DNA of 64,000 nucleotides from a bacterium BMS3Bbin08 (GTDB taxonomy: Bacteria; Nitrospirota; Thermodesulfovibrionia; UBA6902; BMS3Bbin08): contig BDTR01000030.1 in the NCBI GenBank assembly GCA_002897775.1, positions 128,070 through 192,069 of the forward strand, read 5' to 3'. The notes beneath the pieces are model-generated. The model searched no databases, was not told where the DNA came from, and saw only the letters and a list, made by a program, of their open reading frames with translations. Shown in pieces: positions 7,241-50,837 of the stretch. Position 1 is the first letter of the stretch. Each line of letters starts with the position of its first letter. Position numbers and translations under genes: made by a program.

Positions 7241-7334
7241 GGTTAAAGATCCAAATCACAAGCCTGCCTGCCGGTAGGCAGGCACCAACTCCCAATTTAC
7301 GAACGTTTGGAATTTCGTTATTGGATATTGGAGC

Positions 7335-16773: not shown

Positions 16774-16798
16774 CCGTCCAGTTACCCAAAATTTTTGA

Positions 16799-16910
16799 TT
16801 TAGTGGTTGCCCTTCGGGCCATGTACCGTTCTGGTGCACGGCGGGCAAGCACAATGTAAGGATCTATTCATCATAACATTCGCTCACTAACCACTCGCTG
16901 TGCATTCATA
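16799..16910 (+). repeat. dispersed ~110-nt intergenic repeat, copy A
   Basis: Shares conserved blocks with copies at 38005-38130 and 50286-50398: TTAGTGGTyGCCC, CGGCGGGyAAGCACAATGTA, ATTCGCTCAC and CATTCAT. Begins with a GCCC-TTCG-GGC tetraloop hairpin. Confidence 0.7.
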
Positions 16911-16991
16911 GATTTGAGAAACTCCCATAATTCCATAATAGATTGATTGTTCCTTTACAATTCTCTATTCCCGATTCACTGTTCACGGTAG

Positions 16992-20100: not shown

Positions 20101-20142
20101 TGAAATTTTACGCGCATAGTCTTGAAGGAAAGCCGCATTGAG
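20101..20142 (+). pseudogene. relic of the cas3 5' end (first ~13 codons)
   Basis: ATGAAATTTTACGCGCATAGTCTTGAAGGAAAGCCGCATTGA translates to MKFYAHSLEGKPH*. It is nearly identical to the start of cas3 at 22315 (MTEYYAHSLEGRPP). Confidence 0.75.
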
Positions 20143-20345
20143 ACAGAATTTACAAAATGCTTGAATATTCTTATCTATAGTGGCAGAATTAGAATTAATT
20201 ATGGCATATTATTTTAAACAGGCAGAGAGGTTGATCTATGATGCCTGAGAATGAGCCTGTCATGGCCATATCTGCAGCATAGTGAGTGCTTTCGAAAGGT
20301 GCGCGCCGGATCGACTGGGAACATTGGGATTAAAGGGGGACGGAA

Positions 20346-20662
20346 TGACGGGTAAAGCATATATTGAAATACCGGAAGAAAAAATAGCCCGGTTCTGCGG
20401 GAAATGGAAGATACGTGAATTCGCGCTCTTCGGTTCTGTCCTGAGGGATGATTTCAGACCTGACAGCGACATTGACGCGCTGGTTACTTTTGATGAGGAT
20501 GCTCAACACTCCCTGTTTGACCTTGTTAATATGGAAGATGAACTCAGGGAGATTTTTGGGCGCAATGTGGACCTGGTAAGCCGCAAAGGCATTGAAGCAA
20601 GCAGAAATTATATACGAAGAAACGCAATATTGAACTCCGCAGAGGCGGTATATGCAGCGTGA
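20346..20662 (+). CDS. nucleotidyltransferase (MNT/MntA-type antitoxin)
   Basis: Polymerase beta-type nucleotidyltransferase motif GS...D.D (FALFGSVLRDDFRPDSDIDALVTF). Overlaps the downstream DUF86 gene. Shine-Dalgarno-like AAGGGGGA lies upstream of the ATG at 20346. Confidence 0.8.
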
Positions 20663-20996
20663 CCGTGAGTTTTTCCTCGACATATTGGAGGCGGCAAAAC
20701 TCGCTGTCTCTTATGTCGGTGAAAAGTCTAAGGAAGATTTTTTAAAAGACCCTCAGTGTCAGGACGCTGTTATCAGACGGCTTGAGATAATAGGTGAAGC
20801 ATCCCGACGGATTTCTGCGGAGACACAGGCGGATTTTCCTGATTTGCCGTGGGGTGAAATGATCGGAATGCGGAATGTGATGATCCATAAGTATGACGAC
20901 GTGGACCCCGGTATAGTCTGGAAGACAGTAAAAAGTAACCTCCCAAAACTTATTACATCATTTAAAACGATACTCGAAGCGCCTGATAAAGAGTAA
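20652..20996 (+). CDS. HepT-like (DUF86, HEPN superfamily) toxin
   Basis: 114 aa with the DUF86 layout (RLEIIGEASRRIS...MRNVMIHKYDDVD). Overlaps the upstream MNT gene by 11 nt. Confidence 0.8.
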   Translation: MQRDREFFLDILEAAKLAVSYVGEKSKEDFLKDPQCQDAVIRRLEIIGEASRRISAETQADFPDLPWGEMIGMRNVMIHKYDDVDPGIVWKTVKSNLPKLITSFKTILEAPDKE

Positions 20997-21112
20997 CCAT
21001 CATTATTGACCACTTATTGTTCTTCCCGTGGAGAACAGGAAAACTTCCGGAGTAATGCACCAAGGAAATTATATAAAAGTCCAAAAGGGTAATAATTGCG
21101 TAAATATTACGC

Positions 21113-21285
21113 GCATAGGCTTGATGAAAAGCCGCCCGATGAATGGCATCTGCTTGTCAAAAACTCGCAGAGAGGAACATTTATTGAATGTAGCAAAACT
21201 GGCGGAAAAATTTACAGATGAATTTGGCTCCGGGGAATGGGCGTATCTGGCGGGGCTGTGGCATAGGCTAAGAAAATTATAATAG
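21113..21285 (+). pseudogene. diverged relic of the cas3 5' end (~55 codons)
   Basis: In-frame similarity to cas3 codons 4-60. YYAHRLDEKPPDEWHLL aligns with YYAHSLEGRPPDEWHLL. KFTDEFGSGEWAYLAGLWHRL aligns with EFANYFGAKTWGELAGANHDL. Confidence 0.7.
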
Positions 21286-21304
21286 AATGTGAAGGAGGAC
21301 AAAT

Positions 21305-22138
21305 TTGGAAACAAGTATAGCAGTTTTTAAGGGTAAGCAGATCAGAAAAACTATTCATAACAACGAATGGTGGTTTTCAATTATCGATGTAATTGAGGTG
21401 CTCACCGGAACTGAGCGACCACGAAAGTACTGGAATGATTTAAAGAAAAAGCTGGCGGATGAAGGATATGACGAGTTGTCCGAAAAAATCGGACAACTGA
21501 AAATACAGTCGGCAGACGGGAAATACTATAAGACAGACTGTTCAAATACAGAGACAATGTTCAGGCTTATCCAGTCCATTCCATCTCCCAAAGCTGAACC
21601 TTTCAAGCGCTGGCTGGCAAAGGTTGGCTACGACCGTGTCCAGGAAATTGAAGACCCTGAACTCGGCACGAAAAGGACAAGGGCTTTATACAAGGCGAAG
21701 GGCTATTCGGACGACTGGATTGAAAAGCGCATGCGCGGTATTGCCATTCGTGAAGAGCTTACAGATGAGTGGAAAAAGAGGGAAGTGAAAGAGAAAAGGG
21801 AATACGAGATTCTCACTGCCGAGATTGCAAAAGCGGCATTCGGCATAACACCCGGCCAACACAAAAAACTTAAGGGACTGAAACGTCAAAACCTTCGTGA
21901 CCACATGAACGATCTCGAGTTAATTTTCTCAATGCTTGGCGAAGCGGCAACAACTGAGATAACGCGTGTTGATGATGCAAAAGGATTTAGTGAAAACAAA
22001 AAGTCAGCCCGTAAGGGTGGCGGCGTTGCAGGTAAGGCTCGGAAAGACCTTGAAAAAAAGACCAGGAAGAAGGTTGTTTCCCGTGAGAACTACCTGACCG
22101 AACCGGAGAGCCGGAAGAAGTTGGCAAGAAAGAAGTAA
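21305..22138 (+). CDS. Bro-N domain protein, DinD-like (DNA-damage-inducible protein D family)
   Basis: N-terminal Bro-N (FKGKQIRKTIHNNEWWFSIIDVIEVL). The central region resembles E. coli DinD (LKGLKRQNLRDHMNDLELIFSMLGEA). Lys/Arg-rich C-terminus. Confidence 0.7.
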   Translation: METSIAVFKGKQIRKTIHNNEWWFSIIDVIEVLTGTERPRKYWNDLKKKLADEGYDELSEKIGQLKIQSADGKYYKTDCSNTETMFRLIQSIPSPKAEPFKRWLAKVGYDRVQEIEDPELGTKRTRALYKAKGYSDDWIEKRMRGIAIREELTDEWKKREVKEKREYEILTAEIAKAAFGITPGQHKKLKGLKRQNLRDHMNDLELIFSMLGEAATTEITRVDDAKGFSENKKSARKGGGVAGKARKDLEKKTRKKVVSRENYLTEPESRKKLARKK

Positions 22139-22156
22139 AAAACGGGAGGGGTTGCA

Positions 22157-22306
22157 ATGGGACATGAAGCAAAGAAAACCGAACATTCCGGCGCCAAGAA
22201 AGGCTCTGGCGCATACTGGGGCAGAAAGGTTGCGGCGAAGAAGGAGTCGAACAGGAAAAGACGGGAGAATGATAAGGGAAGTGTGAGGGAGCAGAAGGAT
22301 CGGTAA
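22157..22306 (+). CDS. small basic hypothetical protein (49 aa)
   Basis: ATG preceded by GGGAGG. Translates to MGHEAKKTEHSGAKKGSGAYWGRKVAAKKESNRKRRENDKGSVREQKDR. Absent from the ORF track because it is under 60 aa. Confidence 0.3.
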   Translation: MGHEAKKTEHSGAKKGSGAYWGRKVAAKKESNRKRRENDKGSVREQKDR

Positions 22307-22314
22307 GGTTCAAG

Positions 22315-24492
22315 ATGACAGAATATTATGCGCATAGTCTTGAAGGAAGGCCGCCGGATGAATGGCATCTCCTGGATGAGCACTTGGAGAATGTTGCAAG
22401 AATGGCCGCTGAATTCGCTAACTATTTTGGCGCCAAAACATGGGGTGAATTAGCGGGGGCAAATCATGACCTTGGCAAAGGCACACGGCCTTGGCAGGCA
22501 TACCTTCGGAAATCAAATGATATTATTGACGAATTTGCCAAGTATTATAAAGGACATCCGAATCATGCTGCTGTAGGTGCGCAATGGCTTAATAACAACT
22601 CAAGGGAAGCTGGAAAATTGTTGGCATACTGTATCGCAGGACACCATGGGGGTCTGCCTAGTTGGAGCGATTCTCCTGTTGCCTCATTGGAGATGAAGCT
22701 TCAACAACCGTTTCCTGAAGTTGCTGTGCCTTGTACAGTCTCGGAATTTCCAACCACCCTGCCTTTTCCCATTGATTCGGATCGTTTTGGGTTTCAGTTG
22801 CAATTTTTTGTTCGAATGCTTTTTTCCTGTCTTGTAGATGCGGATTTTCTTGATACGGAAGCATCTCTGGACAAAAAGAGGTCCGGCTGGCGTTCTACCT
22901 ATCCTGGAATCAGCGAACTTCATGAGAGATTCTGGGCAAATTTCAATGTGTTGCGTGAAGGAGCTGATCAAACCTTAAATGTGAACCGGCAACGGGAACT
23001 GGTTCTTGAAGACTGCTTGCGGGCAGCGGCGTTGGAACCAGGATTGTTTTCACTGACGGTTCCAACCGGCGGCGGTAAGACTCTGGCCTCGCTGGCCTTG
23101 GCACTGAATCATGCGATAAATAAAGAAAAGAGAAGAATTATTTACGTCATTCCTTTTACCAGCATCATTGAGCAGAATGCCAAGGTTTTCCGTGATATGC
23201 TGGGTGAAAATGCTGTTCTGGAACACCATTGCAATTTTCTACCTGACGATTCGAATTGGCAAACCAGGCTTGCAACTGAAAATTGGGACGCCCCTGTAGT
23301 AGTAACGACCAATGTCCAGTTTTTCAATTCTTTTTATGCCAATAAGACATCGAAGTGCCGGAAGCTGCATAATGTGGTTGAGAGTATCATTATCTTTGAT
23401 GAAGTTCAGGCCATACCGGTTGAAAAGTTGAAGCCATGCCTGGAAGTCATCAAGGAGTTGTCACTGAACTATGGTGTTACCTCGATTTTATGCACGGCCA
23501 CGCAACCTGCCATTGAGTTTTCTGACCAATTCACTACCGGACTGCAGAATGTCACGGAAATTATTCAGGATGTCCCATCGCTCTTTACAGCCTTGAAACG
23601 AACGGAGGAGGCTTTTATTGGTGAACTCAGTGAGCAGGATATTGCAGAACGGTTGCTGGAACATGAACAGGTCCTGTGCATCGTGAATACTCGGCAGCAG
23701 GCACTGGATATCTTTAATGCCTTGCCTGAGTCCGATGCAAATTTTCATCTGAGCGCCTTGATGCACCCAGTCCACCGGACGAAAAAATTGAATGAAATCA
23801 GAAACAGATTGTCGCCCGCAAACAAATTGCCGTGTCGGGTGATCAGCACACAGTTGATTGAAGCAGGTGTTGATGTGGATTTTCCCTGTGTATTTCGGGC
23901 AGTTGCCGGAATCGACAGTATTGCCCAGGCTGCAGGGCGATGTAATCGGAACGGCCTGAGCAAGGTACCATGCAAAGTGTATGTGTTTGAGTTTTCGAAA
24001 GATGGTGTTTGCTCTTTCTTTCGTCATGCTGCACAATCAGCCGCGAAGCTCTTTGAACCATTTGCCGGAAAACTTACAGATCCTGAATGTGTCCGTGAGT
24101 ATTTCGCAGATTTTTTTTGGAAAAATGAACAACGAATGGATGAGGACGGTATCATCGAAAATTACTGTCAACCGGCGCAATCAGGTAATATTCAATTTCG
24201 TGACATTGCAGAATTCCAGATGATTAAATCAGCTACCAAGCCAGTAGTCATTGCTTTGGAAGAAAATGCTATCGAACTGGTGAGTTCGCTCGAATTTGCA
24301 GAGCACAAAGGAGGAATTCTTCGGAAGCTCCAGCAGTTCAGTGTTCAAATTTACCCGTATCAATTAGAAGAAATAAAGAATTGGCTGGAAAGTCCGGTGC
24401 CGGGCGTCTGGGTCTTGCGTTCGCAAGAGCTCTACTCCGAGACTACCGGGCTCAGGTGTAAGCCACCTGAAGGACAAGCATTTTTTGGTTAA
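22315..24492 (+). CDS. cas3: CRISPR-associated helicase/nuclease Cas3 (HD domain plus SF2 helicase), type I
   Basis: 725 aa. N-terminal HD nuclease (YAHSL...HDLGK...AGHHGG). DExH helicase motifs (VPTGGGKT, IFDEVQ). Confidence 0.93.
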   Translation: MTEYYAHSLEGRPPDEWHLLDEHLENVARMAAEFANYFGAKTWGELAGANHDLGKGTRPWQAYLRKSNDIIDEFAKYYKGHPNHAAVGAQWLNNNSREAGKLLAYCIAGHHGGLPSWSDSPVASLEMKLQQPFPEVAVPCTVSEFPTTLPFPIDSDRFGFQLQFFVRMLFSCLVDADFLDTEASLDKKRSGWRSTYPGISELHERFWANFNVLREGADQTLNVNRQRELVLEDCLRAAALEPGLFSLTVPTGGGKTLASLALALNHAINKEKRRIIYVIPFTSIIEQNAKVFRDMLGENAVLEHHCNFLPDDSNWQTRLATENWDAPVVVTTNVQFFNSFYANKTSKCRKLHNVVESIIIFDEVQAIPVEKLKPCLEVIKELSLNYGVTSILCTATQPAIEFSDQFTTGLQNVTEIIQDVPSLFTALKRTEEAFIGELSEQDIAERLLEHEQVLCIVNTRQQALDIFNALPESDANFHLSALMHPVHRTKKLNEIRNRLSPANKLPCRVISTQLIEAGVDVDFPCVFRAVAGIDSIAQAAGRCNRNGLSKVPCKVYVFEFSKDGVCSFFRHAAQSAAKLFEPFAGKLTDPECVREYFADFFWKNEQRMDEDGIIENYCQPAQSGNIQFRDIAEFQMIKSATKPVVIALEENAIELVSSLEFAEHKGGILRKLQQFSVQIYPYQLEEIKNWLESPVPGVWVLRSQELYSETTGLRCKPPEGQAFFG

Positions 24493-27688: not shown

Positions 27689-28258
27689 ATGACTGAAAAG
27701 AAACAATCACCCCAACTAATCCCCCCGCACGGCGGTTACCAGGAACTCCAGTCCTACAAGATGTCGGAGATCGTGTATGACGCTACAGTAGTATTCTGCA
27801 ACCGCTTCATCAACATCCGCTCCCGCACTCATGACCAGATGGTGCAGGCGGCGCGAAGCGGGAAGCAGAATATCGCTGAGGGCAGCATGGCATCGGGCAC
27901 TTCAAAGAAGTTCGAGCTTAAGCTCGTCAGTGTGGCGCGGGCAAGCCTTGAAGAAGTGCTTCTGGATTTTAAGGACTATCTGAGGCAGAAGGGGCTTGTG
28001 CTTTGGACAAAGGATCATCCAAAGGCCGGTGAAGTGAGAAAACTCTGCTATCAAAAGAATAGGTCTTATACGACTTATAAGACCTATCTTGAGCAGTCGC
28101 CACCGGAGGTGGCGGCCAATACCATGATCTGTCTGATTCACCAGACAAACTATCTGCTGGACAAGCAGTTAAGGGCCCTTGAACAAGCCTTTCTGAAAGA
28201 AGGCGGCTTTACTGAAAGACTCTACCATGCGCGATCAGGGTCGCGCAAAAAGAAATAG
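27689..28258 (+). CDS. four-helix-bundle protein (23S rRNA intervening-sequence / Avd-like family) with a ~70-aa C-terminal extension, embedded in the cas operon
   Basis: LQSYKMSEIVYDATVVF...QMVQAARSGKQNIAEGSMASGTSKKFELKLVSVARASLEEV matches the family pattern (Y.L...NIAEG.....KEF......A.GSL.E). Its start overlaps the cas7 stop (TGAATG). cas4 starts 9 nt after its stop. Confidence 0.65.
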   Translation: MTEKKQSPQLIPPHGGYQELQSYKMSEIVYDATVVFCNRFINIRSRTHDQMVQAARSGKQNIAEGSMASGTSKKFELKLVSVARASLEEVLLDFKDYLRQKGLVLWTKDHPKAGEVRKLCYQKNRSYTTYKTYLEQSPPEVAANTMICLIHQTNYLLDKQLRALEQAFLKEGGFTERLYHARSGSRKKK

Positions 28259-30474: not shown

Positions 30475-31536
30475 GTCGCCCCCCATGCGGGGGCGTGGAT
30501 TGAAACCATATTAATTTGTATGGGCACGCCTGAAGGTTCGTCGCCCCCCATGCGGGGGCGTGGATTGAAACTTGCTAATACACTTTCATTTGAGATAGCG
30601 CATGGTGTCGCCCCCCATGCGGGGGCGTGGATTGAAACGCTTACCATCAATACAAACTGCTGAATATGCGTGTCGCCCCCCATGCGGGGGCGTGGATTGA
30701 AACTAGATAATCGCTGTTGGATACGCCAAGCAGTAAGTCGCCCCCCATGCGGGGGCGTGGATTGAAACTTGATAGCACTGATGGAGATACAGAAGAAACT
30801 GCGTCGCCCCCCATGCGGGGGCGTGGATTGAAACCTGTTAATATTGCAGGGATGGGTCAAATAGAAGTGGTCGCCCCCCATGCGGGGGCGTGGATTGAAA
30901 CTTAAAGAAAGTAACATATTCAAAAGAAAAAACAAGTCGCCCCCCATGCGGGGGCGTGGATTGAAACTAAAGTGTTCACGGCGTTGGCTTCACTGGACAC
31001 TAGTCGCCCCCCATGCGGGGGCGTGGATTGAAACAAATTAGTTTAACTAATGGAGGTGGCGGCATGGAAGTCGCCCCCCATGCGGGGGCGTGGATTGAAA
31101 CCCCGATTCAGGCAGAGGATTTTATCTTCGAGGCCGTCGCCCCCCATGCGGGGGCGTGGATTGAAACTATCTTCTTAGGATCATAGGTAACGCTTACACG
31201 TGTCGCCCCCCATGCGGGGGCGTGGATTGAAACAGTTTTGGGTTTTATAATTATTGATTCCATAGTCGTCGCCCCCCATGCGGGGGCGTGGATTGAAACT
31301 TGATAGCCATAGGTTTTTCGCACAATAAATAATGTCGCCCCCCATGCGGGGGCGTGGATTGAAACTGTCAATAATGTAACCAGCAATATCGGAGGTAACA
31401 TGTCGCCCCCCATGCGGGGGCGTGGATTGAAACGGCGCAAAGCTGTTCTATGTATACGACAGGACGTTGTCGCCCCCCATGCGGGGGCGTGCCTGTCTGC
31501 CGGTCTACGACTCGTATAGTAGGCAGGGATTGAAAC
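30475..31536 (+). CRISPR. CRISPR array: 16 repeats of the type I-C 32-bp repeat GTCGCCCCCCATGCGGGGGCGTGGATTGAAAC and 15 spacers of 33-35 bp. The last repeat carries a 36-bp insertion. A ~180-bp AT-rich leader lies between cas2 and repeat 1.
   Basis: Repeat starts at 30475, 30540, 30607, 30672, 30737, 30803, 30870, 30936, 31003, 31070, 31136, 31202, 31268, 31334, 31403 and 31469. Repeat 16 is split as GTCGCCCCCCATGCGGGGGCGTG, then 36 bp, then GATTGAAAC. Confidence 0.97.
31492..31527. mobile_element. 36-bp palindromic insertion (CCTGTCTGCCGGTCTACGACTCGTATAGTAGGCAGG) inside CRISPR repeat 16, between GCGTG and GATTGAAAC
   Basis: The repeat is otherwise intact on both sides. The termini CCTGyCTGCC/GGCAGG are inverted. 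The same left junction recurs at 35094. Confidence 0.7.
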
Positions 31537-31601
31537 TGAAGAAGGCAATATATTTAGCAAAAGAAGTCATAAATATTGTTATTATATAAATCAAGGAAAA
31601 G

Positions 31602-31922
31602 ATGATGAATAAAATCGACCTGGAAATCGTTGAAAGATTTAGAGAGCTTGTATCACAGAAAGTAAAAGTACATGAACTCAGAGTGTTCGGCTCCCGCGCC
31701 AGAGGTGACGCTACTGCAGAGTCGGACCTTGATGTACTAATTGTTGTAGAACATCTTGACCATTCCATTGAAAGATATATAAGCGATTGCGCGTGGGAAG
31801 CAGGCTTCCCTGCTGATGTTGTAGTTGTTCCGATCCCCATAAGTATCGATGCTATCAAGAACAGCCCAATACGCGAATCCATCTTCATCAAGAATGTCTA
31901 TAATGAGGGAATTGCTGTATGA
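31602..31922 (+). CDS. minimal nucleotidyltransferase (MNT) of a HEPN/MNT toxin-antitoxin pair
   Basis: VFGSRARGDATAESDLDVLIVVE is the polymerase beta-type nucleotidyltransferase motif. Overlaps the HEPN gene by 4 nt. Confidence 0.8.
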   Translation: MMNKIDLEIVERFRELVSQKVKVHELRVFGSRARGDATAESDLDVLIVVEHLDHSIERYISDCAWEAGFPADVVVVPIPISIDAIKNSPIRESIFIKNVYNEGIAV

Positions 31923-32314
31923 CTGATTTGATGGCTCTGATACAATACCGGCTGAATGAGGCGGATGATTCCATAAAAGAAGCTGATGTTCTTCTAAGAG
32001 AAGGTATGAGCATGCGTGCCGTAATGAACAGGTTATATTATGCAATGTTTTACGCCGTATTGGCCCTTTTACAGAAAAAGCAAATTGCCACTTCAAAACA
32101 TTCAGGCGTAATTTCTCACTTTGATAAGGAATTTATAAAAAAAGGAATATTTGATAAAGAGCTATCTAAAGCATTGCATCGCGCGTTTGATCTCAGGCAG
32201 AAGGGTGATTATATGGAAGATGCAGAAGTAACGAAAGAAGATGTGGATGAGATGATCCCCAAAGTAGCCGATTTTGTTAGCAAAGTAAAAGATCACCTGC
32301 TTGGCAGTCATTAA
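31919..32314 (+). CDS. HEPN domain protein (partner of the MNT gene)
   Basis: 131 aa, all-alpha, with an R-x(4-6)-H-like motif (RAFDLRQKGDY). Classic MNT-HEPN operon organisation. Confidence 0.7.
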   Translation: MTDLMALIQYRLNEADDSIKEADVLLREGMSMRAVMNRLYYAMFYAVLALLQKKQIATSKHSGVISHFDKEFIKKGIFDKELSKALHRAFDLRQKGDYMEDAEVTKEDVDEMIPKVADFVSKVKDHLLGSH

Positions 32315-32403
32315 GTAAGATAATAAATCACAATTGTCAGCTATATTGTTCTTTAGGGCCTAAAAGTACAATATGGGAATCTGCAATATACTTTCTTGGG
32401 ATT

Positions 32404-32493
32404 ATGAGCCCTGCACAAATCGTCCAAAAACTATGGAATTACTGCAATGTCCTTCGCTCTGACCGAATCCCAAGGCCGGGTGCTCAGAAGTAA
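32404..32493 (+). pseudogene. relic 5' fragment of a type I restriction-modification hsdM gene (29 codons)
   Basis: MSPAQIVQKLWNYCNVLRSDRIPRPGAQK* is the HsdM N-terminal signature (LW..C..LR). Almost identical at DNA level to the fragment at 34900. Confidence 0.7.
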
Positions 32494-32592
32494 TTTTTAC
32501 TCTACCGTTATCGTAGTATATTAAGTACGTAATATTTCAGCTATTTGATGAAATCAAGCACTTCCAATGTATCATTTTCCTTGACAATAGGT

Positions 32593-32633
32593 ATAGTATA
32601 TATGCTATATTTCATCTATTAAATGAAATATAG
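32593..32633. promoter_or_regulatory. perfect 14-bp inverted repeat, a candidate AbiEi autoregulatory operator
   Basis: ATGCTATATTTCAT-ctattaa-ATGAAATATAGCAT lies directly upstream of the abiEi start at 32649. Confidence 0.45.
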
Positions 32634-32648
32634 CATGTTAAATGTACT

Positions 32649-33455
32649 ATGGAAAAAATAACAGGCTTAGGAACAATTGACAGGGAGCGGTTAACCGCAT
32701 TAATTCGCGGTACAAAAGGCACTATTTCAGTTGCCGAGTCAGCGGATATTTTAAAGGTATCTTCAGTTAGCGCAGCGAAGATGCTTGCTCGCTGGGCGAA
32801 AAAAGGGTGGCTGTCACGTGTGCGCCGCAGTATATATATATCCATTCCTCTTGAATCCCGCACAACCGATGTTCCTCTTGAAGACCCGTGGCTTGTTGCT
32901 GATCGTTTATTCAGCCCGTGTTATATCGGGGGATGGAGCGCGGCTGAGTACTGGAATCTCACTGAACAAATCTTTCGCACTATAGCAGTAATGACAGTAC
33001 AAAAACCAAGAAATCGTACCCCTAATATCAGAGGAACAAATTTTCTGCTTCGCACTGTTCCGGAAAGAACCATGTTTGGGCTAAAATCTGCCTGGAGGGG
33101 ACAGGTGAAAGTATCAGTATCTGACGCAACCAGGACAATTCTTGATATGCTCAATGATCCGGGACTCGGTGGCGGAATACGGTCGACTGCCGATATGTTT
33201 AAAGATTATTTAAAATCGGAAAACAAAAATCTGGACATGCTCATCGACTATTCCACGCGTTTTGGAAATGGCGCGGTCTTTAAACGTCTTGGTTTTATGC
33301 TGGAGCGTTTTTCTCCGGACGAAAACACTATCATTGAAAAGTGCAAATCGCAATTAACCAAAGGGAACTCTAAACTTGATCCAAAACTCGGGGCGGACAA
33401 GCTCGTTACACGCTGGAAGTTATGGATTCCAAAAAATTGGGTAAAGGAGCAATGA
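32649..33455 (+). CDS. AbiEi-type antitoxin (type IV toxin-antitoxin; winged-HTH regulator)
   Basis: 268 aa with an N-terminal wHTH (LTALIRGTKGTISVAESADILKVSSVSAAKMLARWAKKGWLSRVRRSIY). Gene pair with the AbiEii gene downstream. Confidence 0.75.
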   Translation: MEKITGLGTIDRERLTALIRGTKGTISVAESADILKVSSVSAAKMLARWAKKGWLSRVRRSIYISIPLESRTTDVPLEDPWLVADRLFSPCYIGGWSAAEYWNLTEQIFRTIAVMTVQKPRNRTPNIRGTNFLLRTVPERTMFGLKSAWRGQVKVSVSDATRTILDMLNDPGLGGGIRSTADMFKDYLKSENKNLDMLIDYSTRFGNGAVFKRLGFMLERFSPDENTIIEKCKSQLTKGNSKLDPKLGADKLVTRWKLWIPKNWVKEQ

Positions 33456-33456
33456 C

Positions 33457-34890
33457 GTGATTGATCGCCGGGAGATCATGGAGTTTTCCAGAGAGTGGGG
33501 ACTGACTGCAAATGTCATTGAAAAAGATTATGTGCTTGGATGGGTATTGGCCGGGATTGCCGGTCATGATAAGCTGGGTTCTGAATGGGTGTTTAAAGGA
33601 GGGACCTGTTTAAAGAAGTGTTACTTTGAAACATATCGCTTTTCCGAAGACCTGGATTTTACCGTAGTGAATGCTGAGCATTTGAACGAAGAATATCTTC
33701 TGTCTTCATTTCGTGATGTCGCCGGATGGATATACGAATCTACCGGCATAGAAATCCCGGCAGATACGATCCGTTTTGAAATCTATACAAATCCACGCGG
33801 CGCAACATCTGTTCAGGGAAGGATTGGTTACCGGGGACCAATGCAGCCTGGCGGGGCCCTTCCCCGGATAAAACTGGATTTAACAAATGATGAAATATTA
33901 GTTCTTGATCCCGCTGTACGGGAAGTCCATCATCCTTATTCCGACAGACCGGAAGACGGCATCTCCGCAAGGTGCTATTCTTTCGAAGAAGTGTATGCGG
34001 AAAAAGTCAGGGCATTGGCGGAACGTGAAAGACCGCGCGATCTTTATGACGTTATACATCTTCATCGTCATGACAGTTTAAGAACTAATCGTGAGTTAAT
34101 AATGAGCACGCTTGAAAAGAAGTGTGAATTTAAAGGGATATCCGTACCGACTATAGAAGCACTGGAAAATAAACCCGAGCGTGCCGAACTGGAAGCTGAA
34201 TGGGAGAATATGCTGGCACACCAATTGCCTGTTTTACCGCCGTTTGGACAATTCTGGCAGGAACTTCCTGAGGTGTTTGAATGGTTATATCGCGCAGTTG
34301 AAAAAGTTGCGGCTCTTCCGATATCTTCCGGACGTTATGAGGTTGATGAAACATGGCATGCCCCTGCAATGGCACAAGCCTGGTATGCTAATGCACCGCT
34401 TGAAATAATACGTTTTGCAGCAGCTAACCGTTTATGTGTGAATTTAAAATATAATGGTACAAATCGTGTCATAGAGCCATATTCCCTGCGCAGGACAAAA
34501 GATGGAAATTTGTTATTATATGCCGTCAAACACAATACACACGAGGACAGATCCTATAGAATTGACAGGATACAGGGAGCAGAAGCGACCAAGACGCCAT
34601 TTACGCCTCGTTATGTAGTCGAACTGACTGCTGCCGGACCGATTTCGGCACCTCCAACAGAACGGACATCATCCGGATATGGATTAACCAATACCAGAAA
34701 ATCAAGAATCGGTCGGGGTAGGTCTATAAGCCGTTCAATGAGTTTTGGGCCTAAATATATAATCGAATGTACTTATTGCGGTAAGAAATTCAATCGAAAA
34801 AGCTATACTACCAGTCTAAATGCTCACAAGGATAAAAGCGGATATCCTTGCCCGGGAAGGATTGGGTATATGGTAGATACGAAGTATTAG
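33457..34890 (+). CDS. AbiEii/AbiGii-family nucleotidyltransferase toxin fused to a C-terminal WYL-like domain and a zinc ribbon
   Basis: N-terminus: DUF1814/AbiEii motifs (WVFKGGTCLKKCYFETYRFSEDLDFTVV). Residues ~310-375: LKYNGTNRVIEPYSLRRTKDGNLLLYAVKHNTHEDRSYRIDRI matches the WYL-domain pattern. C-terminus: CTYCGKKF...CPGRIGY. GTG start at 33457 with AAGGAG 7 nt upstream. Confidence 0.7.
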   Translation: MIDRREIMEFSREWGLTANVIEKDYVLGWVLAGIAGHDKLGSEWVFKGGTCLKKCYFETYRFSEDLDFTVVNAEHLNEEYLLSSFRDVAGWIYESTGIEIPADTIRFEIYTNPRGATSVQGRIGYRGPMQPGGALPRIKLDLTNDEILVLDPAVREVHHPYSDRPEDGISARCYSFEEVYAEKVRALAERERPRDLYDVIHLHRHDSLRTNRELIMSTLEKKCEFKGISVPTIEALENKPERAELEAEWENMLAHQLPVLPPFGQFWQELPEVFEWLYRAVEKVAALPISSGRYEVDETWHAPAMAQAWYANAPLEIIRFAAANRLCVNLKYNGTNRVIEPYSLRRTKDGNLLLYAVKHNTHEDRSYRIDRIQGAEATKTPFTPRYVVELTAAGPISAPPTERTSSGYGLTNTRKSRIGRGRSISRSMSFGPKYIIECTYCGKKFNRKSYTTSLNAHKDKSGYPCPGRIGYMVDTKY

Positions 34891-34899
34891 AACAATAAA

Positions 34900-35060
34900 A
34901 TGAGCCCAGCACAAATCGTCCAAAAACTCTGAAATTACTGCAACGTCCTTCGTGACGACGGAATGAGCTGCGGAGATTATGTGGAACAGCTTACGTATCT
35001 GCTGTTTCTCAAGATGGCTGATGAGAGGGCTAAACCGCCATATAATCAACCGACTCAGTA
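34900..35060 (+). pseudogene. second relic hsdM 5' fragment (~53 codons) with a premature stop (TGG to TGA at codon 11), cut off by a CRISPR repeat remnant
   Basis: MSPAQIVQKL*NYCNVLRDDGMSCGDYVEQLTYLLFLKMADERAKPPYNQPTQ* has the HsdM N-terminal domain signature. No intact hsdM follows. Confidence 0.7.
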
Positions 35061-35070
35061 AATAGATTTA

Positions 35071-35093
35071 GTTGCCCCCCATGCGGGGGCGTG
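35071..35093 (+). repeat. CRISPR repeat 5' portion (GTTGCCCCCCATGCGGGGGCGTG) joined directly to CCTGCCTGCCAGTCTACGACT...
   Basis: 23 of 23 positions match the repeat with one mismatch. It breaks at the same position as repeat 16, and the adjoining sequence matches the left end of the 36-bp insertion. Confidence 0.75.
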
Positions 35094-35316
35094 CCTGCCT
35101 GCCAGTCTACGACTGAGAAAAATCCCGCCTTCAGAAGATAATGCTGTGAGATCGATAAATAAAGCTGAACACTGGTTAAAAACAAAGCAATGGTGCCGGT
35201 AACTGATGTGGACTACTGACACATATAAAAGAGAGGGTATTTGTTAATTTTGACAAACTATAATAATTAAGTTATACTTTAATTAAGAAGTAAAACAAAT
35301 TTATGGAGGTAAAACT

Positions 35317-35604
35317 ATGCCTACAGTAACTGTATCATCAAAAGGGCAGATTGTCATGCCAAAAAAGATACGGGATGCCCTTGGCATAAAGCCGAAACAG
35401 AAGGTATTTTTGAAAGTTGTACAAGATCATGCTGAAATTATACCGCTGCCGGAAAATCCTGCTCAGGCATTCTGCGGTATTTTCAAAAAAGGTTCATCAC
35501 TGACAAAATCACTGCTGAAGGATCGAAAGGAGGAAGCAAAACTTGAAGAGAAAAATATTGCTCGATTCTTACGCGCTTCTGGCATATCTAAAAAAAGAAG
35601 ATAA
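35317..35604 (+). CDS. vapB: AbrB/MazE/SpoVT-family antitoxin (VapB-like)
   Basis: MPTVTVSSKGQIVMPKKIRDALGIKPKQKVFL is the swapped-hairpin AbrB-type DNA-binding domain. Lies upstream of the PIN gene and overlaps it in another frame. Confidence 0.7.
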   Translation: MPTVTVSSKGQIVMPKKIRDALGIKPKQKVFLKVVQDHAEIIPLPENPAQAFCGIFKKGSSLTKSLLKDRKEEAKLEEKNIARFLRASGISKKRR

Positions 35605-35944
35605 CTACAGGAAAGTGATGGAATTATTAAATTCGGCGCCTGAAGATTGTTCTATTATAATGAATGAAATCAATGCGGGAGAAAGTTACTATATTATTGC
35701 CAGAGAAAGAGGAATCAGGCAAGCCGATTATTTCATTGAAACCATTCTTCCTAACCTTCCTATAGACATTATATCCAATTCATTCGACCAGATCATAGAT
35801 GCTTCCAGAATCAAAGTTGACCATTCCATTTCTTATGCTGACTGTTTTGTTGTCGCTACAGCCGTCCGTGAAAAAGCCGTGATTGTTACAGGCGATCCTG
35901 ATTTTAAGCGAGTTAAAGATATTGTGGATGTAGAATGGATATAG
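35543..35944 (+). CDS. vapC: PIN-domain ribonuclease toxin (VapC-like)
   Basis: KILLDSYALLAY near the N-terminus carries the first acidic PIN residue. CFVVATAVREKAVIVTGDPDF carries the later one. The start assignment is uncertain; this one overlaps vapB by about 60 nt. Confidence 0.7.
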   Translation: MKRKILLDSYALLAYLKKEDNYRKVMELLNSAPEDCSIIMNEINAGESYYIIARERGIRQADYFIETILPNLPIDIISNSFDQIIDASRIKVDHSISYADCFVVATAVREKAVIVTGDPDFKRVKDIVDVEWI

Positions 35945-35979: not shown

Positions 35980-36019
35980 TGCCCCCCCCATGCGGTGGCG
36001 TGCCTGCGGGGATTGAAAC
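35980..36019 (+). repeat. degenerate CRISPR repeat carrying an 8-bp insertion (CCTGCGGG) at the same GCGTG^GATTGAAAC position
   Basis: GCCCCCCCCATGCGGTGGCGTG-cctgcggg-GATTGAAAC. This is either a degenerate terminal repeat or a footprint of the palindromic element. Confidence 0.6.
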
Positions 36020-36136
36020 TGCTTTATTTCAGTGCCTTCAGTGTTCTCAGTGGTTGTATGAGAGAATATTCAATTACCCAGGACTGAAGCTGCTCTATTG
36101 ACTACTCCATTTATTCGGAGGTATACTTAAAAATAT

Positions 36137-36250
36137 CCTGGGGGAGGCGCAGACCTGTGGAACTACGGGTCAGGCCTGAGAGTTTTCCCGAATATTCGGG
36201 GAGAGACCCCTTGAACCTGAACTGGGTAATACCAGCGGAGGAAAAGGAGG
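36137..36250 (+). ncRNA. TPP (THI-box) riboswitch
   Basis: Conserved CTGAGA (36176-36181) and ...GACCCCTTGAACCTGAACTGGGTAATACCAGCGGAGGAA fit the THI element consensus. Located upstream of the thiamine operon. Confidence 0.8.
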
Positions 36251-36265
36251 AATAAAAAAATTATA

Positions 36266-37798: not shown

Positions 37799-37999
37799 AT
37801 GAAACTTAAATTAAACGGAGACACTGCGGAGTTTCAGGACGGCCTTACTGTTGCGGGCCTTCTTGAAAACCTCAAGATAGAGCCCGGAAGGGTTGCCGTA
37901 GAGGTTAATATGGAAATTGTGAAAAAACAGGATTATCAGAAAGTGGTCGTTAAACAGGGTGATTCAATAGAGATCGTGAATTTTGTAGGTGGAGGGTAA
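37799..37999 (+). CDS. thiS: sulfur-carrier protein ThiS
   Basis: 66 aa, beta-grasp fold, ends in GG. Confidence 0.88.
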   Translation: MKLKLNGDTAEFQDGLTVAGLLENLKIEPGRVAVEVNMEIVKKQDYQKVVVKQGDSIEIVNFVGGG

Positions 38000-38004
38000 T
38001 AAAT

Positions 38005-38130
38005 TTAGTGGTCGCCCTTCGGGCAAGCCCTCCAAAATAACCGGCGGGCAAGCACAATGTAATGATTTTCTTATTAACATATTCGCTCACTACGCCTGCC
38101 TGCCGGCAGGCAGATTCACTGAGCATTCAT
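38005..38130 (+). repeat. dispersed ~110-nt intergenic repeat, copy B (includes the CTGCCTGCCGGCAGGCAG palindrome)
   Basis: Same conserved blocks as copies A and C. The UUCG-tetraloop hairpin GCCCTTCGGGC is present. Confidence 0.7.
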
Positions 38131-38165
38131 AAATTGTAAATTGCAAATTGAAAAAGGAGAGATTT

Positions 38166-48047: not shown

Positions 48048-50267
48048 TTGTCAATAGCAAAATGGCAGGCCCTTTATTATTGGAGATTTCTGGTAAAATC
48101 TGGCATATTACAGGGGTCTCCGCAGCGGCTTCCGATGATCTCAGGGAGTTTTAACAATATAAAAATGAAACAGCAATTTGAGAGGATCATCAGATATATA
48201 GCAGACCCCGGCAAAGGTGCCGGATCAGGCCTGAAGATAAATATCAGGGAACAGTTCCAGCCTGATGAACAGGACAGCCATTCTGTAGCAAGGAACCTTA
48301 ACGCCGCTTTCCTGATAGCCTTATCAGGGGAATCACATTATTTGTATGATAAGGCACTGGGATATCTGAACGGACATGAGGGCCATACTTCATGGGGCAG
48401 GACAGCAGGATTTTATAAGGACGGACTCAGGCTCGTACTTTCAGAGATATCAGGCAGATGTTCTGCTGATGAGGACCTCAAAAAAGGCCTGACAGATCTT
48501 TATTCATGGATCAGAGGCCAGGAGGCCGGTCACAACCCTGAAAAGACGGTTGAAATGTTCCATCAGGTCTTCTTTCCAGAGGGGGTATCTTTACTGGACG
48601 AGCAAAACAGGAAAGAAAAGATCAACTCCCTCAGAGAACAAAGAAAGATCAGGATCTCGAAGCTGAACCCCTCACCAATCAATGATCCGGCCAAAGAGGT
48701 CCTGTTTACGTCAAATATACTTGTTACAGTTCCTCCGGCGTCAGATGATATCCAGGGTCTTTCTGTAAGCGGCCATCTCAAGCAGATGCTAAAAGATATA
48801 AGCCGGGAAGATCAGGCCTTTTGGTATGACCATCCCATACCCATCGGGGTCTCACCCTGGCATAATGAGGCCTTATACGGCCTTGAAGGTCTGGACGAGG
48901 CGGTGTCGTTTGAAAAGCAGAGGGGAACGCTTGACAGTGATAGCAGGCTCACATGTGTTCTTTCAGCCTCTGCGACCCATAAGGGACTCCAGGGGATAGT
49001 AAAGGAGTATCTTGAGGACGAGTTCAAAAAAGAAAAGAACATCCGCCATCTTGATGTCTATGTTTTTACTGAGGCCGACACCCTGGAACTTGTGAACGAG
49101 ATCCTTATTCCGGCGGCTGAAACGTATCTTGGCGCCGGAGAACACGGCATACTTTATGAAATTGTAGGTGTTGACGGAGAGTATGGCAGGCATTATAGTT
49201 TTCTAAGGGCTGTATCAGCGTTCTGGCAGGTCCTTATCGCTCCTGAGATCAAAGGAACCTTTAAGATCGATCTTGACCAGGTCTTTCCCCAAAAAGAGCT
49301 CCGGGAGCAGACAGGTATGTCAGCGTTCGGGCATTTTAAGACGCCTCTGTGGGGCGCGGAAGGTATCGATATCCGGGACAACAAGGTGGAGCTCGGTATG
49401 ATCGCAGGCGCGCTTGTGAACCAGGAGGATATTGATAAATCCCTGTTCTATCCTGATGTCCGTTTCCCTGACAGGGGAATTAACGCGGATGAATTTGTGT
49501 TTTTCAGCACGCTTCCACAGGCCCTGTCCACAGAAGCGGAGATGATGACGCGTTACACGGATAATATGTTTGACGGTAAAAAGCAGTGTATCCAGCGTAT
49601 GCATGTTACAGGCGGGACCAGCGGCATACTTGTGGACTCGTTAAGGAAATATCATCCCTTTACACCGACTTTCATAGGCCGGGCGGAAGACCAGGCATAT
49701 ATAATGTCCGTACTGTTCACTGACCCGCAAAAAAATTTACGCTATGTACATAAAGACGGCCTGATAATGAGGCATGACAAAGAGGCCTTTGCAAAAGAGG
49801 CGATAAAAATGGCCGCAGCCGGAAAACTTACCGGAGATTACATACGGATCCTCATTTTTTCATATTATGTAAATGCCCTGCCCTGGCCGTTCGAGGACAT
49901 CAAGAAAACAATTGGCCCGTTCACAGGCTGTTTTGTATCAAAGATCCCGCTTACAGTTGTATATTTAAGGTTTGCACTGAAAATAGCCTCTTTTTTTGAT
50001 AATGAAACACAGGAACACAGAAGCCAGGGCTTTGAACTTCTGAAAACAGGCAGTAAACGCCTGCATGAAACCATTAAAAAACTGGTTGAAGCCCCGGACC
50101 TTTTGAATGAGCAGTTTCATAAAGAGAAAAAGGGGTGGAAGCTTTTTTATGATATACTGGATACCGTGGAGAAAAAACTTGGACAGAATGATAAGTTCGC
50201 GCTTGATCTGAAGAAAAAAGCAGAAGCACTGGTTAGAGGATGCAGGATAAATTTTGAAGTAAAGTGA
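48048..50267 (+). CDS. large hypothetical protein (about 700-739 aa; start may be the internal Met at 48166)
   Basis: Long ORF with no recognisable motifs. Confidence 0.55.
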   Translation: MSIAKWQALYYWRFLVKSGILQGSPQRLPMISGSFNNIKMKQQFERIIRYIADPGKGAGSGLKINIREQFQPDEQDSHSVARNLNAAFLIALSGESHYLYDKALGYLNGHEGHTSWGRTAGFYKDGLRLVLSEISGRCSADEDLKKGLTDLYSWIRGQEAGHNPEKTVEMFHQVFFPEGVSLLDEQNRKEKINSLREQRKIRISKLNPSPINDPAKEVLFTSNILVTVPPASDDIQGLSVSGHLKQMLKDISREDQAFWYDHPIPIGVSPWHNEALYGLEGLDEAVSFEKQRGTLDSDSRLTCVLSASATHKGLQGIVKEYLEDEFKKEKNIRHLDVYVFTEADTLELVNEILIPAAETYLGAGEHGILYEIVGVDGEYGRHYSFLRAVSAFWQVLIAPEIKGTFKIDLDQVFPQKELREQTGMSAFGHFKTPLWGAEGIDIRDNKVELGMIAGALVNQEDIDKSLFYPDVRFPDRGINADEFVFFSTLPQALSTEAEMMTRYTDNMFDGKKQCIQRMHVTGGTSGILVDSLRKYHPFTPTFIGRAEDQAYIMSVLFTDPQKNLRYVHKDGLIMRHDKEAFAKEAIKMAAAGKLTGDYIRILIFSYYVNALPWPFEDIKKTIGPFTGCFVSKIPLTVVYLRFALKIASFFDNETQEHRSQGFELLKTGSKRLHETIKKLVEAPDLLNEQFHKEKKGWKLFYDILDTVEKKLGQNDKFALDLKKKAEALVRGCRINFEVK

Positions 50268-50285
50268 GTTTTTTTCAATTGACAA

Positions 50286-50398
50286 TTAGTGGTCACCCGC
50301 CAAAAATATCGGCGGGTAAGCACAATGTATGGAATTGATATTATTACATTTGCTCACGAACACCTGCCTTTGGCAGGCTACGCTCGCTGTACATTCAT
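50286..50398 (+). repeat. dispersed ~110-nt intergenic repeat, copy C
   Basis: TTAGTGGTCACCCGCC...CGGCGGGTAAGCACAATGTA...TTTGCTCAC...CCTGCCTTTGGCAGG...CATTCAT. Confidence 0.7.
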
Positions 50399-50423
50399 CA
50401 ATTAACAATTATCAATCGAAAAC

Positions 50424-50837
50424 ATGTTCGCTGTAAGCCCTGAAAAAGAAAAGGCCCTTAAGGCAAAGCTTTCAAGCCTGGGCATTTATGAAAAAGACAT
50501 CAGGGAATCGTTCATACGTTCCCGGGGACGGGGCGGCCAGAATGTCAACAAGACCTCCACATGCGTTTACCTTAAGCACAGACCAACGGGTATTGAGGTC
50601 AAATGCCGGAAGACGCGCTCGCAGGGGCTGAACCGCTATCACGCGAGGCTGCTGCTGTATACAAAAATAGAACGCCTGATCAAAGGGAAAAAGAGCGAAG
50701 AAGAACAGCGCCTCGCGAAATTGAGGCGTCAGAAGAGAAAACGATCAAAGCGGGCCAAGGAAAAGATGCTGGCCGAAAAGAAACTGCATTCTAAAAAGAA
50801 AAAAGAGCGTTCCCTTAAGGTCAGCGCCGAAGAATAA
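50424..50837 (+). CDS. arfB: alternative ribosome-rescue factor ArfB (peptidyl-tRNA hydrolase, RF-1 domain)
   Basis: 137 aa. GGQ motif (SRGRGGQNVNKTSTCV). Lys/Arg-rich C-terminal tail. Confidence 0.85.
   Translation: MFAVSPEKEKALKAKLSSLGIYEKDIRESFIRSRGRGGQNVNKTSTCVYLKHRPTGIEVKCRKTRSQGLNRYHARLLLYTKIERLIKGKKSEEEQRLAKLRRQKRKRSKRAKEKMLAEKKLHSKKKKERSLKVSAEE

Follow-up and report, generated by a model that had tools for sequence, protein, structure and literature searches.

A two-gene AbiE toxin–antitoxin (TA) module in the Nitrospirota bacterium BMS3Bbin08 lies between two truncated starts of hsdM, the methylase gene of type I restriction-modification (R-M) systems. We describe this arrangement within a 64-kb stretch of contig BDTR01000030.1 (positions 128,070 to 192,069; hereafter the window, whose own numbering is used throughout). 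Compared with relative loci, the structure is best read as one instance of widespread stub-and-cassette arrays upstream of hsdM, in which short 5' pieces of the gene, here called stubs, stand between small defence cassettes. We regard it as probable (about 0.65) that the region is a decapitated fragment of such a type I R-M accessory-cassette array: an AbiE-hsdM unit would have recombined into an MNT-HEPN-hsdM locus, and the hsdM body would have been lost later. Relative loci that we fetched are labeled by L-numbers (L010, L175, and so on).

Two hsdM starts flank the AbiE module

The two fragments, F1 and F2, share one orientation; F1 possibly extends to 32468. They stand among the following features.

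31602 to 31922, plus strand: MNT-type nucleotidyltransferase, antitoxin-like partner of HEPN (NTP_transf_2, E=1e-11)
31919 to 32314, plus strand: HEPN-domain protein, toxin-like partner of MNT (HEPN, E=7e-16)
32315 to 32403, plus strand: native hsdM leader, untranslated, 89 nt (collinear with L175 1311-1398 and with the leader of the intact hsdM in L012, 8371-8431)
32404 to 32456, plus strand: F1, hsdM stub of nt +1 to +53, residually similar up to +65 (32468) (repeat, tblastn, collinearity with L175)
32457 to 32507, no strand: junction filler, 51 nt, without match in the fetched loci and without significant hairpin
34900 to 35058, plus strand: F2, hsdM stub, nt +1 to +159, starting 9 nt past the AbiEii stop, with TGG changed to TGA at 34930-34932 (Pfam, tblastn)

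Judged by similarity, F1 and F2 are genuine co-oriented 5' ends of a type I methylase gene. With its TGA read as tryptophan, F2 matches Pfam HsdM_N (E=9.1e-10, 39.7 bits against a cut-off of 24.5). When the intact HsdM of L011 is compared with the 64-kb window by tblastn, only 34900-35055 (E=3e-24, aa 1-52) and 32404-32463 (E=1e-7, aa 1-20) are found; the window fragments thus hold no full-length open reading frame (ORF) of ~490 aa with the catalytic N6_Mtase domain. Similarity searches of the same window for the partner subunits HsdR and HsdS gave nothing at E<=0.01. The two fragments form a direct repeat (32404-32468 and 34900-34964) of 86% identity over 65 nt: 49 of the first 53 positions are identical, the next 4 nt are scrambled, and 7 of the 8 after that match. 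Codon 11, TGA in F2, is TGG in every intact homologue. Homology of F2 to hsdM stops at 35058; the next 12 nt, TAAATAGATTTA, are unmatched, and a piece of CRISPR (clustered regularly interspaced short palindromic repeats) repeat follows from 35071 to 35114.

The first-pass annotation, made from the letters alone, had reported near-identical HsdM N-termini at both sites, the TGG-to-TGA change at codon 11 of the second copy, the truncation of that copy at a CRISPR-repeat junction, and the lack of any hsdM gene in this place; all four readings hold. Its first interval, 32404-32493, stands in part: 32404-32456 (or to 32468) derives from hsdM, and the remainder of that small ORF is unrelated junction DNA. 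Against all fetched loci, the filler (32457-32507) and the sequence around 35059-35316 matched CRISPR repeat pieces only. At the F1 junction we found no hairpin or palindromic element (the fold is no better than that of shuffled sequences, z=0.35), and a scan for terminators and promoters found no terminator behind F1 or F2; its promoter-like matches were weak throughout.

The left-hand unit has an intact counterpart in L175, which we located by protein search and context look-up. Its order is MNT, HEPN (88% identical to the HEPN of the window), an 88-nt leader, and an intact 493-aa HsdM. Window positions 31602-32456 are collinear with it at 83.8% through MNT, HEPN, leader, and the first 53 nt of hsdM; the break falls at hsdM +53/54, beyond which the hsdM of L175 runs on intact. 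Both F1 and F2 align to this hsdM start, and L175 as a whole is an uninterrupted MNT-HEPN-hsdM locus at ~84% identity, not a sister strain. The collinearity up to +53, together with the leader in L012, indicates that F1 and the 89-nt leader are the remnant of an hsdM that once lay downstream of MNT-HEPN. By its position and similarity, F2 is the start of an hsdM that once lay downstream of AbiEi-AbiEii. Homology of the MNT promoter region to L176 starts at 31539, 2-3 nt past the end of a CRISPR repeat. Among the 80 hsdM loci surveyed below, we found no relatives of the MNT/HEPN pair of the window.

Stub-and-cassette arrays across hsdM loci

The survey covered 80 hsdM loci, one per GTDB species, from Nitrospirota, Scalindua, Beta- and Gammaproteobacteria, Desulfuromonadales, and others. 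The gene order in this hsdM family is hsdR, hsdS, accessory genes, hsdM. Extra hsdM starts occur in 23 of the 80 loci; they lie upstream and on the same strand in 21, with at most 3 per locus, and this figure of 21 is a lower bound since many contigs stop near hsdM. When HsdM is tiled in 50-aa pieces, extra matches concentrate at its N-terminus: 31 for aa 1-50 (29 upstream on the same strand, 2 downstream), 12 for aa 51-100, 6 for aa 101-150, and 0-1 for each of the other seven tiles; the flanking sequence available for this comparison was greater downstream than upstream. In most stubs, homology to the intact gene sets in within ~5 nt of the ATG; its end varies from +52 to +495. What the stubs are, how they line up with intact relatives, how general the pattern is, and its 5' and upstream bias are direct observations.

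The five-unit array of L012 reads SMODS, stub, gene, stub, gene, stub, AbiE, stub, Fic, intact hsdM; only the last hsdM is intact. Across loci, the cassettes include Fic/DOC, AbiE, DarT-DarG, Zeta toxin, Schlafen/AlbA_2, DUF4143 ATPase, YhcG/DUF1016, DUF3800, small TA pairs, and unknowns. Stub length appears to be heritable. It is common to related cassettes (+53-65 before AbiE in both the window and L095; +133/139 in L057 and L091), and it differs among AbiE clades (+53-65, +87, +123-157). Codons 1-16 of hsdM, compared over 79 loci, have the highest synonymous conservation in the gene, with a major-codon frequency of 0.76 versus 0.53-0.71 in other 16-codon windows. Because conservation peaks there, the clustering of stub ends near +52 may in part mark the point where alignability decays. 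The stubs are best understood as non-functional scars, since their lengths vary and they contain stops, frameshifts, and palindrome insertions; the local feature in the window is an ordinary decay product. In the literature searched, we found no description of hsdM 5' stubs between cassettes or of cassettes embedded with hsdM, and recurrent cross-phylum cassette arrays with such stubs, along with the same signature at cas3, seem to be undescribed.

A protein of 229-235 aa with an N-terminal motif like ...FLRP.E.V.EPDPRN recurs next to hsdS or hsdM stubs (L012 3430-4119, L035 7144-7839, L039 7763-8461, L069 7600-8307). The two members scanned, those of L012 and L039, have no Pfam match; this is possibly an uncharacterized R-M-associated gene.

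The AbiE module and its pairing with hsdM

The module between the two stubs consists of an operator region and two genes.

32508 to 32648, plus strand: AbiE promoter and operator region with inverted repeats; left edge of the AbiE module common to L010, L012, and L097
32649 to 33455, plus strand: AbiEi, antitoxin and predicted autorepressor (AbiEi_4, 31.6 bits, cut-off 25)
33457 to 34890, plus strand: AbiEii nucleotidyltransferase toxin with a C-terminal WYL domain and a Cys-rich, zinc-ribbon-like tail (AbiEii 140.4 bits, WYL 27 bits)

The toxin is recognized by its AbiEii domain (PF08843), at 140.4 bits against a cut-off of 22.5. Directly upstream and 1 nt apart (33455/33457), AbiEi carries the N-terminal winged helix-turn-helix (wHTH) of AbiE antitoxins; its C-terminal AbiEi_1 domain scores 15.2 bits, under the cut-off for that family. 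Inverted repeats precede AbiEi (32514-32560 with 32603-32649, and 32591-32618 with 32620-32647) and are of the kind expected for a predicted AbiEi operator that serves autoregulation. Both proteins are full length, at 79% identity to their nearest relatives, and the module is probably an active, self-regulated TA or abortive infection (Abi) system. AbiEii has more than 7800 homologues, and all 120 listed matches are 455-494 aa long. Thousands of homologues, about 470-490 aa long, have its combination of WYL domain and Cys-rich tail (zf-BED-like, below cut-off). In other defence regulators, WYL domains act as ligand sensors, and by analogy the domain suggests that toxin activity is regulated. 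In sum, the module appears to be an ordinary member of the large AbiEii-WYL family, intact and self-contained.

We counted the contexts of AbiE in metagenomic loci, 75 of them with sufficient downstream sequence and 63 with sufficient upstream sequence. An hsdM start lies at most 400 nt downstream in 20 of the 75, and an additional stub lies upstream of AbiEi in 7 of the 63. The AbiEii stop is followed after 7-13 nt by the ATG of an intact hsdM in L011, L096, L111, L112, L129, L139, L151, L173, L038, and L092. The proposal that the cassette came from a type I R-M locus gains support here, since AbiEi-AbiEii stands directly 5' of an intact hsdM in L011, L096, L111, L129, and others, and the suggested look at synteny in relatives found AbiE upstream of hsdM in at least 10 loci with the same 7-13-nt spacing. 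At least five loci (L110, L118, L132, L155, and L150) carry AbiE followed by a truncated hsdM stub alone, as the window does. The locus closest to the geometry of the window is L095, whose AbiEii is 78% identical; it holds an hsdS remnant, other genes, an hsdM stub to ~+52-60, and AbiE.

In several genomes with the 7-13-nt AbiEii-hsdM junction, no stub was detectable within 480 nt upstream of AbiEi. Because this junction is constant in many genomes, including those without a stub, we infer that AbiE moves with an hsdM start and not as a bare cassette. The idea of a cassette flanked by duplicated hsdM 5' ends therefore needs revision: both ends are genuine, but they probably did not arise by duplication in place around AbiE, as F1 belongs to the MNT-HEPN unit (intact counterpart L175) and F2 to the AbiE unit.

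CRISPR borders and cas3 relics

The stubs and cassettes of the window sit at the end of a CRISPR array, and their borders are pieces of its repeat.

31469 to 31536, plus strand: sixteenth, terminal degenerate repeat, the left border, consisting of GTCGCCCCCCATGCGGGGGCGTG, a 36-nt palindromic insert (31492-31527), and GATTGAAAC (DNA fold z=-2.4)
35071 to 35114, plus strand: partial CRISPR repeat (left half) with the left 21 nt of the palindromic insert, the right border (41/44 copy of 31469-31512)
35317 to 35944, plus strand: MazE/AbrB-PIN TA pair, between the partial and the next degenerate repeat (profile match)
35980 to 36019, plus strand: third degenerate repeat, consisting of GCCCCCCCCATGCGGTGGCGTG, CCTGCGG, and GGATTGAAAC, followed by the thi-operon promoter and a thiamine pyrophosphate (TPP) riboswitch (repeat comparison)

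Upstream lies a complete type I-C locus (Cas3, Cas5d, Csd1, Cas7, a small four-helix protein, Cas4, Cas1, and Cas2), followed by an array of 15 repeats (30475-31433). The palindromic insert splits the terminal repeat after GCGTG. The block from 31537 to 35070 begins 2-3 nt past the terminal repeat and ends 12 nt before the copy of the first 44 nt of that repeat. In this manner, three degenerate repeats at the leader-distal end of the I-C array enclose a 3.5-kb block in the position of a "spacer" and the MazE-PIN pair (0.87 kb) in the position of a second. The TPP riboswitch and thi-operon promoter region occupies 36130-36261; no other Rfam family reaches threshold between 30000 and 38500.

Recombination between repeat copies is a plausible origin of these borders; no relative showing an intermediate state of the CRISPR-bordered block was found. 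Of the two origins that the first-pass annotation named, arrival from elsewhere and deletion of a local hsdM, we lean towards an imported fragment, or one rearranged through the repeats, because the block abuts the CRISPR repeat ends exactly and the window has no trace of hsdS or hsdR.

The cas3 gene of the same locus has relics of its own, and the parallel that the first-pass annotation drew with them is borne out: two cas3 5' stubs separate cassettes at 20101-22494. Stub A (20101-20137, cas3 +1 to +37) is followed by an MNT/HepT pair (20345-20996). Stub B (21096-21275, +1 to ~+177, frameshifted) is followed by a Bro-N protein (21305-22138), a 49-aa ORF, and the intact cas3 at 22315. In L039, a related MNT/HepT pair precedes an hsdM stub. 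Inserted between cas7 and cas4 in the I-C operon, 27689-28258 encodes a 189-aa protein with weak similarity to the four-helix-bundle family of 23S rRNA intervening sequences.

A palindromic mini-element and an intergenic repeat

The insert in the terminal repeat belongs to a GC-rich palindromic mini-element of 20-60 nt, CCTG(C/T)CTGCC...GGCAG(G/A)CAGG (CCTGCCTGCC...GGCAGGCAGG), which occurs in Nitrospirota and Scalindua. The window has 6 matches against 0.04 expected; sites lie at 7263-7282, 38095-38114, 31492-31527, 35094-35114, and 36003-36009, and relatives carry it in L012, L015, L057, L080, and L091. Its positions are diverse: intergenic DNA, the inside of the terminal CRISPR repeat, hsdM +30/+54 in stubs of different phyla, and, in frame, +143 of an intact hsdM. 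We found no literature on this palindrome. An intergenic repeat of ~110 nt (...GGCGGGCAAGCACAATGTAA...TTCGCTCAC...) occurs at 16790-16960, 37995-38165, and 50262-50432, and at least 2 of its 3 copies end in the palindrome; it may be an element like a miniature inverted-repeat transposable element (MITE).

How the region may have formed

Cassettes would accumulate directly upstream of hsdM, and each accretion would leave behind, in the same orientation, the first 50-500 nt of the previous hsdM. In the window, an AbiEi-AbiEii-hsdM unit would have recombined into an MNT-HEPN-leader-hsdM locus: the left junction, at hsdM +53/54, would have produced F1, and the right side would have remained continuous with the AbiE-borne hsdM, now F2. 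In each cassette lineage, the first stub-cassette-hsdM unit would go back to an illegitimate join. Spread would then follow by RecA-type recombination at the conserved hsdM 5' region; ordinary homologous recombination would suffice because both ends of the unit are homologous to any hsdM of the family. Two routes are conceivable: a Campbell-type single crossover of a circularized fragment with the cassette and an hsdM start, or a double crossover that uses stub and hsdM as its two arms. The strong synonymous conservation of codons 1-16 would aid such exchange. Later, the hsdM body past +159 and any hsdS or hsdR would have been lost. The block that remains is enclosed exactly by the end of one CRISPR repeat and the start of a partial one, at the trailer end of the I-C array.

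Several points weigh against this sequence of events. We see no recent event, neither a stub identical to its neighbour nor an empty and filled pair above 95% identity, so the recombination route and the order of events are read from old scars. With 48-50/53 identities to every lineage, the first 53 nt of hsdM are too conserved for F1 and F2 to be assigned to donor or recipient; assignment of the two by nucleotide identity, which we tried, was uninformative for that reason. Homologous crossover within only ~53 nt is inefficient. The CRISPR-repeat pieces that border the block are unaccounted for by the model. Finally, the stubs of L027 and L032 are 96.9% and 95.7% identical to the intact copy of their own locus, far above any other locus and with the leader included, and fit target duplication in place at least as well.

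Such duplication is the main rival to the recombined array, and we consider it unlikely on balance. A bare AbiE cassette would have entered a resident hsdM at +53, and +1 to +53 would have been duplicated on both sides, for example by the filling in of staggered breaks. Beyond L027 and L032, with stubs 96-97% identical to the intact copy of their own locus, leader included, this account draws on direct repeats of more than 30 bp, on an insert without a mobility gene, and on a repeat that spans the translation start so that the target stays intact, a feature noted by Furuta et al. (PMC2853133). It meets a difficulty in the 7-13-nt AbiEii-hsdM junction, constant across genomes, several of them stub-less within 480 nt upstream of AbiEi, because independent duplications would all need the same starting base. 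In addition, F1 and F2 differ at 4/53 positions and in a scrambled patch, and there is no identical repeat pair among ~30 stubs. A dedicated, integron-like cassette platform is a weaker rival, and we hold it to be improbable. It would explain arrays of up to 5 cassettes, all co-oriented, as well as stub ends that recur at +52-54, palindromes at hsdM +30/+54 in stubs of different phyla and within a split terminal CRISPR repeat, the same stub pattern at cas3 in the window, and the peak of synonymous conservation in hsdM codons 1-16. With no recombinase seen, in the block or in annotated arrays, and with junction positions that vary from +52 to +495, a dedicated site-specific system is nonetheless unlikely; every ORF of 90 aa or more in the 31.5-36.3 kb interval encodes MNT, HEPN, AbiEi, AbiEii, MazE, or PIN, and none a recombinase. 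The F1 junction has no significant hairpin. Copies of the palindrome at 7263 and 38095 stand in ordinary intergenic DNA, and another is in frame in an intact hsdM; perhaps the palindrome is a dispersed element of the repetitive extragenic palindromic (REP) type. We think it doubtful, though less so than such a platform, that an undescribed cassette-capture system stacks TA, Abi, and defence modules into operon-like arrays by attaching them at the conserved starts of the defence genes hsdM and cas3 and at the CRISPR repeat, perhaps via the CCTGCCTGCC...GGCAGGCAGG palindrome or an unlinked recombinase. Such a system, if real, would be a functional analogue of the integron for defence loci in Nitrospirota, Planctomycetota, and Proteobacteria.

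A role for the stubs themselves, as short leader ORFs or translational-coupling elements for the downstream cassette, is very improbable. In its favour, every stub runs in the direction of the operon, F1 is open over 29 codons, and a stub ORF of L012 ends ~14 nt before the next gene start. In contrast, F2 has its stop at codon 11, stub lengths and frames vary, many stubs contain frameshifts, stops, or palindrome insertions, and AbiEi, 181 nt downstream of F1, has a predicted operator and promoter of its own. An artefact in which assembly fused an R-M locus with a CRISPR array might be suspected, since both CRISPR repeats and duplicated gene starts are well-known sources of misassembled metagenomes; it is effectively refuted. 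The junction at 34880-35130 recurs base for base in nine independent contigs, assembled from four runs and drawn from NCBI, ENA, and Logan, the F1 region is identical as well, and several of the nine contigs span MNT to thiH.

Significance

Defence islands turn over fast, and the movement of small TA and Abi modules without mobility genes is poorly understood. The window itself is a modest result: it holds dead scars and an ordinary member of the AbiE family. As a class, the stubs offer a readable record of module moves. They suggest that modules adjoining a highly conserved defence gene can hitch-hike on the homology of that gene, in a process frequent enough to give arrays in about one-quarter of the loci of this hsdM family, across several phyla. 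They also provide a searchable signature of cassette flow among R-M, CRISPR-Cas, and other defence loci, namely co-oriented 5' stubs upstream of an intact gene, and a concrete recombination model open to laboratory test.

Comparison with known systems

Among known phenomena, insertion with long target duplication (Nobusato et al. 2000, Gene 259:99; Furuta, Abe & Kobayashi 2010, NAR 38:2428, PMC2853133) comes closest. In these cases, a gene unit free of transposase and integrase lies between direct repeats of tens to hundreds of bp, which often span the translation start and leave the target intact; the proposed cycle is insertion, repeat-mediated amplification, and release (PMC2853133). In the published cases, an R-M system was inserted once, the repeats are nearly identical, and a sister strain has the empty site. 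The window agrees with the repeat definition (repeats over 30 bp, insert under 20 kb): a 53-65-nt repeat surrounds a 2.4-kb insert with AbiEi and AbiEii only and no mobility gene. It departs from the definition in its insert, a TA/Abi module where an R-M system is required. More broadly, the cassettes described here are TA, Abi, and defence modules, the 5' end of hsdM (and of cas3) is the constant target, arrays reach 5 units, the repeats are 78-97% identical, and the AbiE unit appears to bring its own hsdM start.

The cassettes themselves are familiar. Accessory genes in type I R-M operons include Fic/DOC, AbiEii, YhcG/DUF1016, Schlafen-like, and others; the same families lie between R-M subunit genes here, and the hsdM 5' stubs are the difference. 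AbiE is a type IV TA and abortive infection system, and the module of the window resembles it in being a two-gene unit with a wHTH antitoxin, a DUF1814-type nucleotidyltransferase toxin, and inverted repeats in the promoter. It differs in the C-terminal WYL domain and Cys-rich tail of AbiEii, which mark a large subfamily commonly in operon with hsdM. Integrons and pdif-module arrays resemble these loci in that small cassettes, poor in promoters and often made up of TA or defence genes, are stacked in one orientation with a repeated site between them. Here, in contrast, no integrase (intI), attC, or Xer-type site was identified, and the repeat is a piece of coding sequence of variable length.

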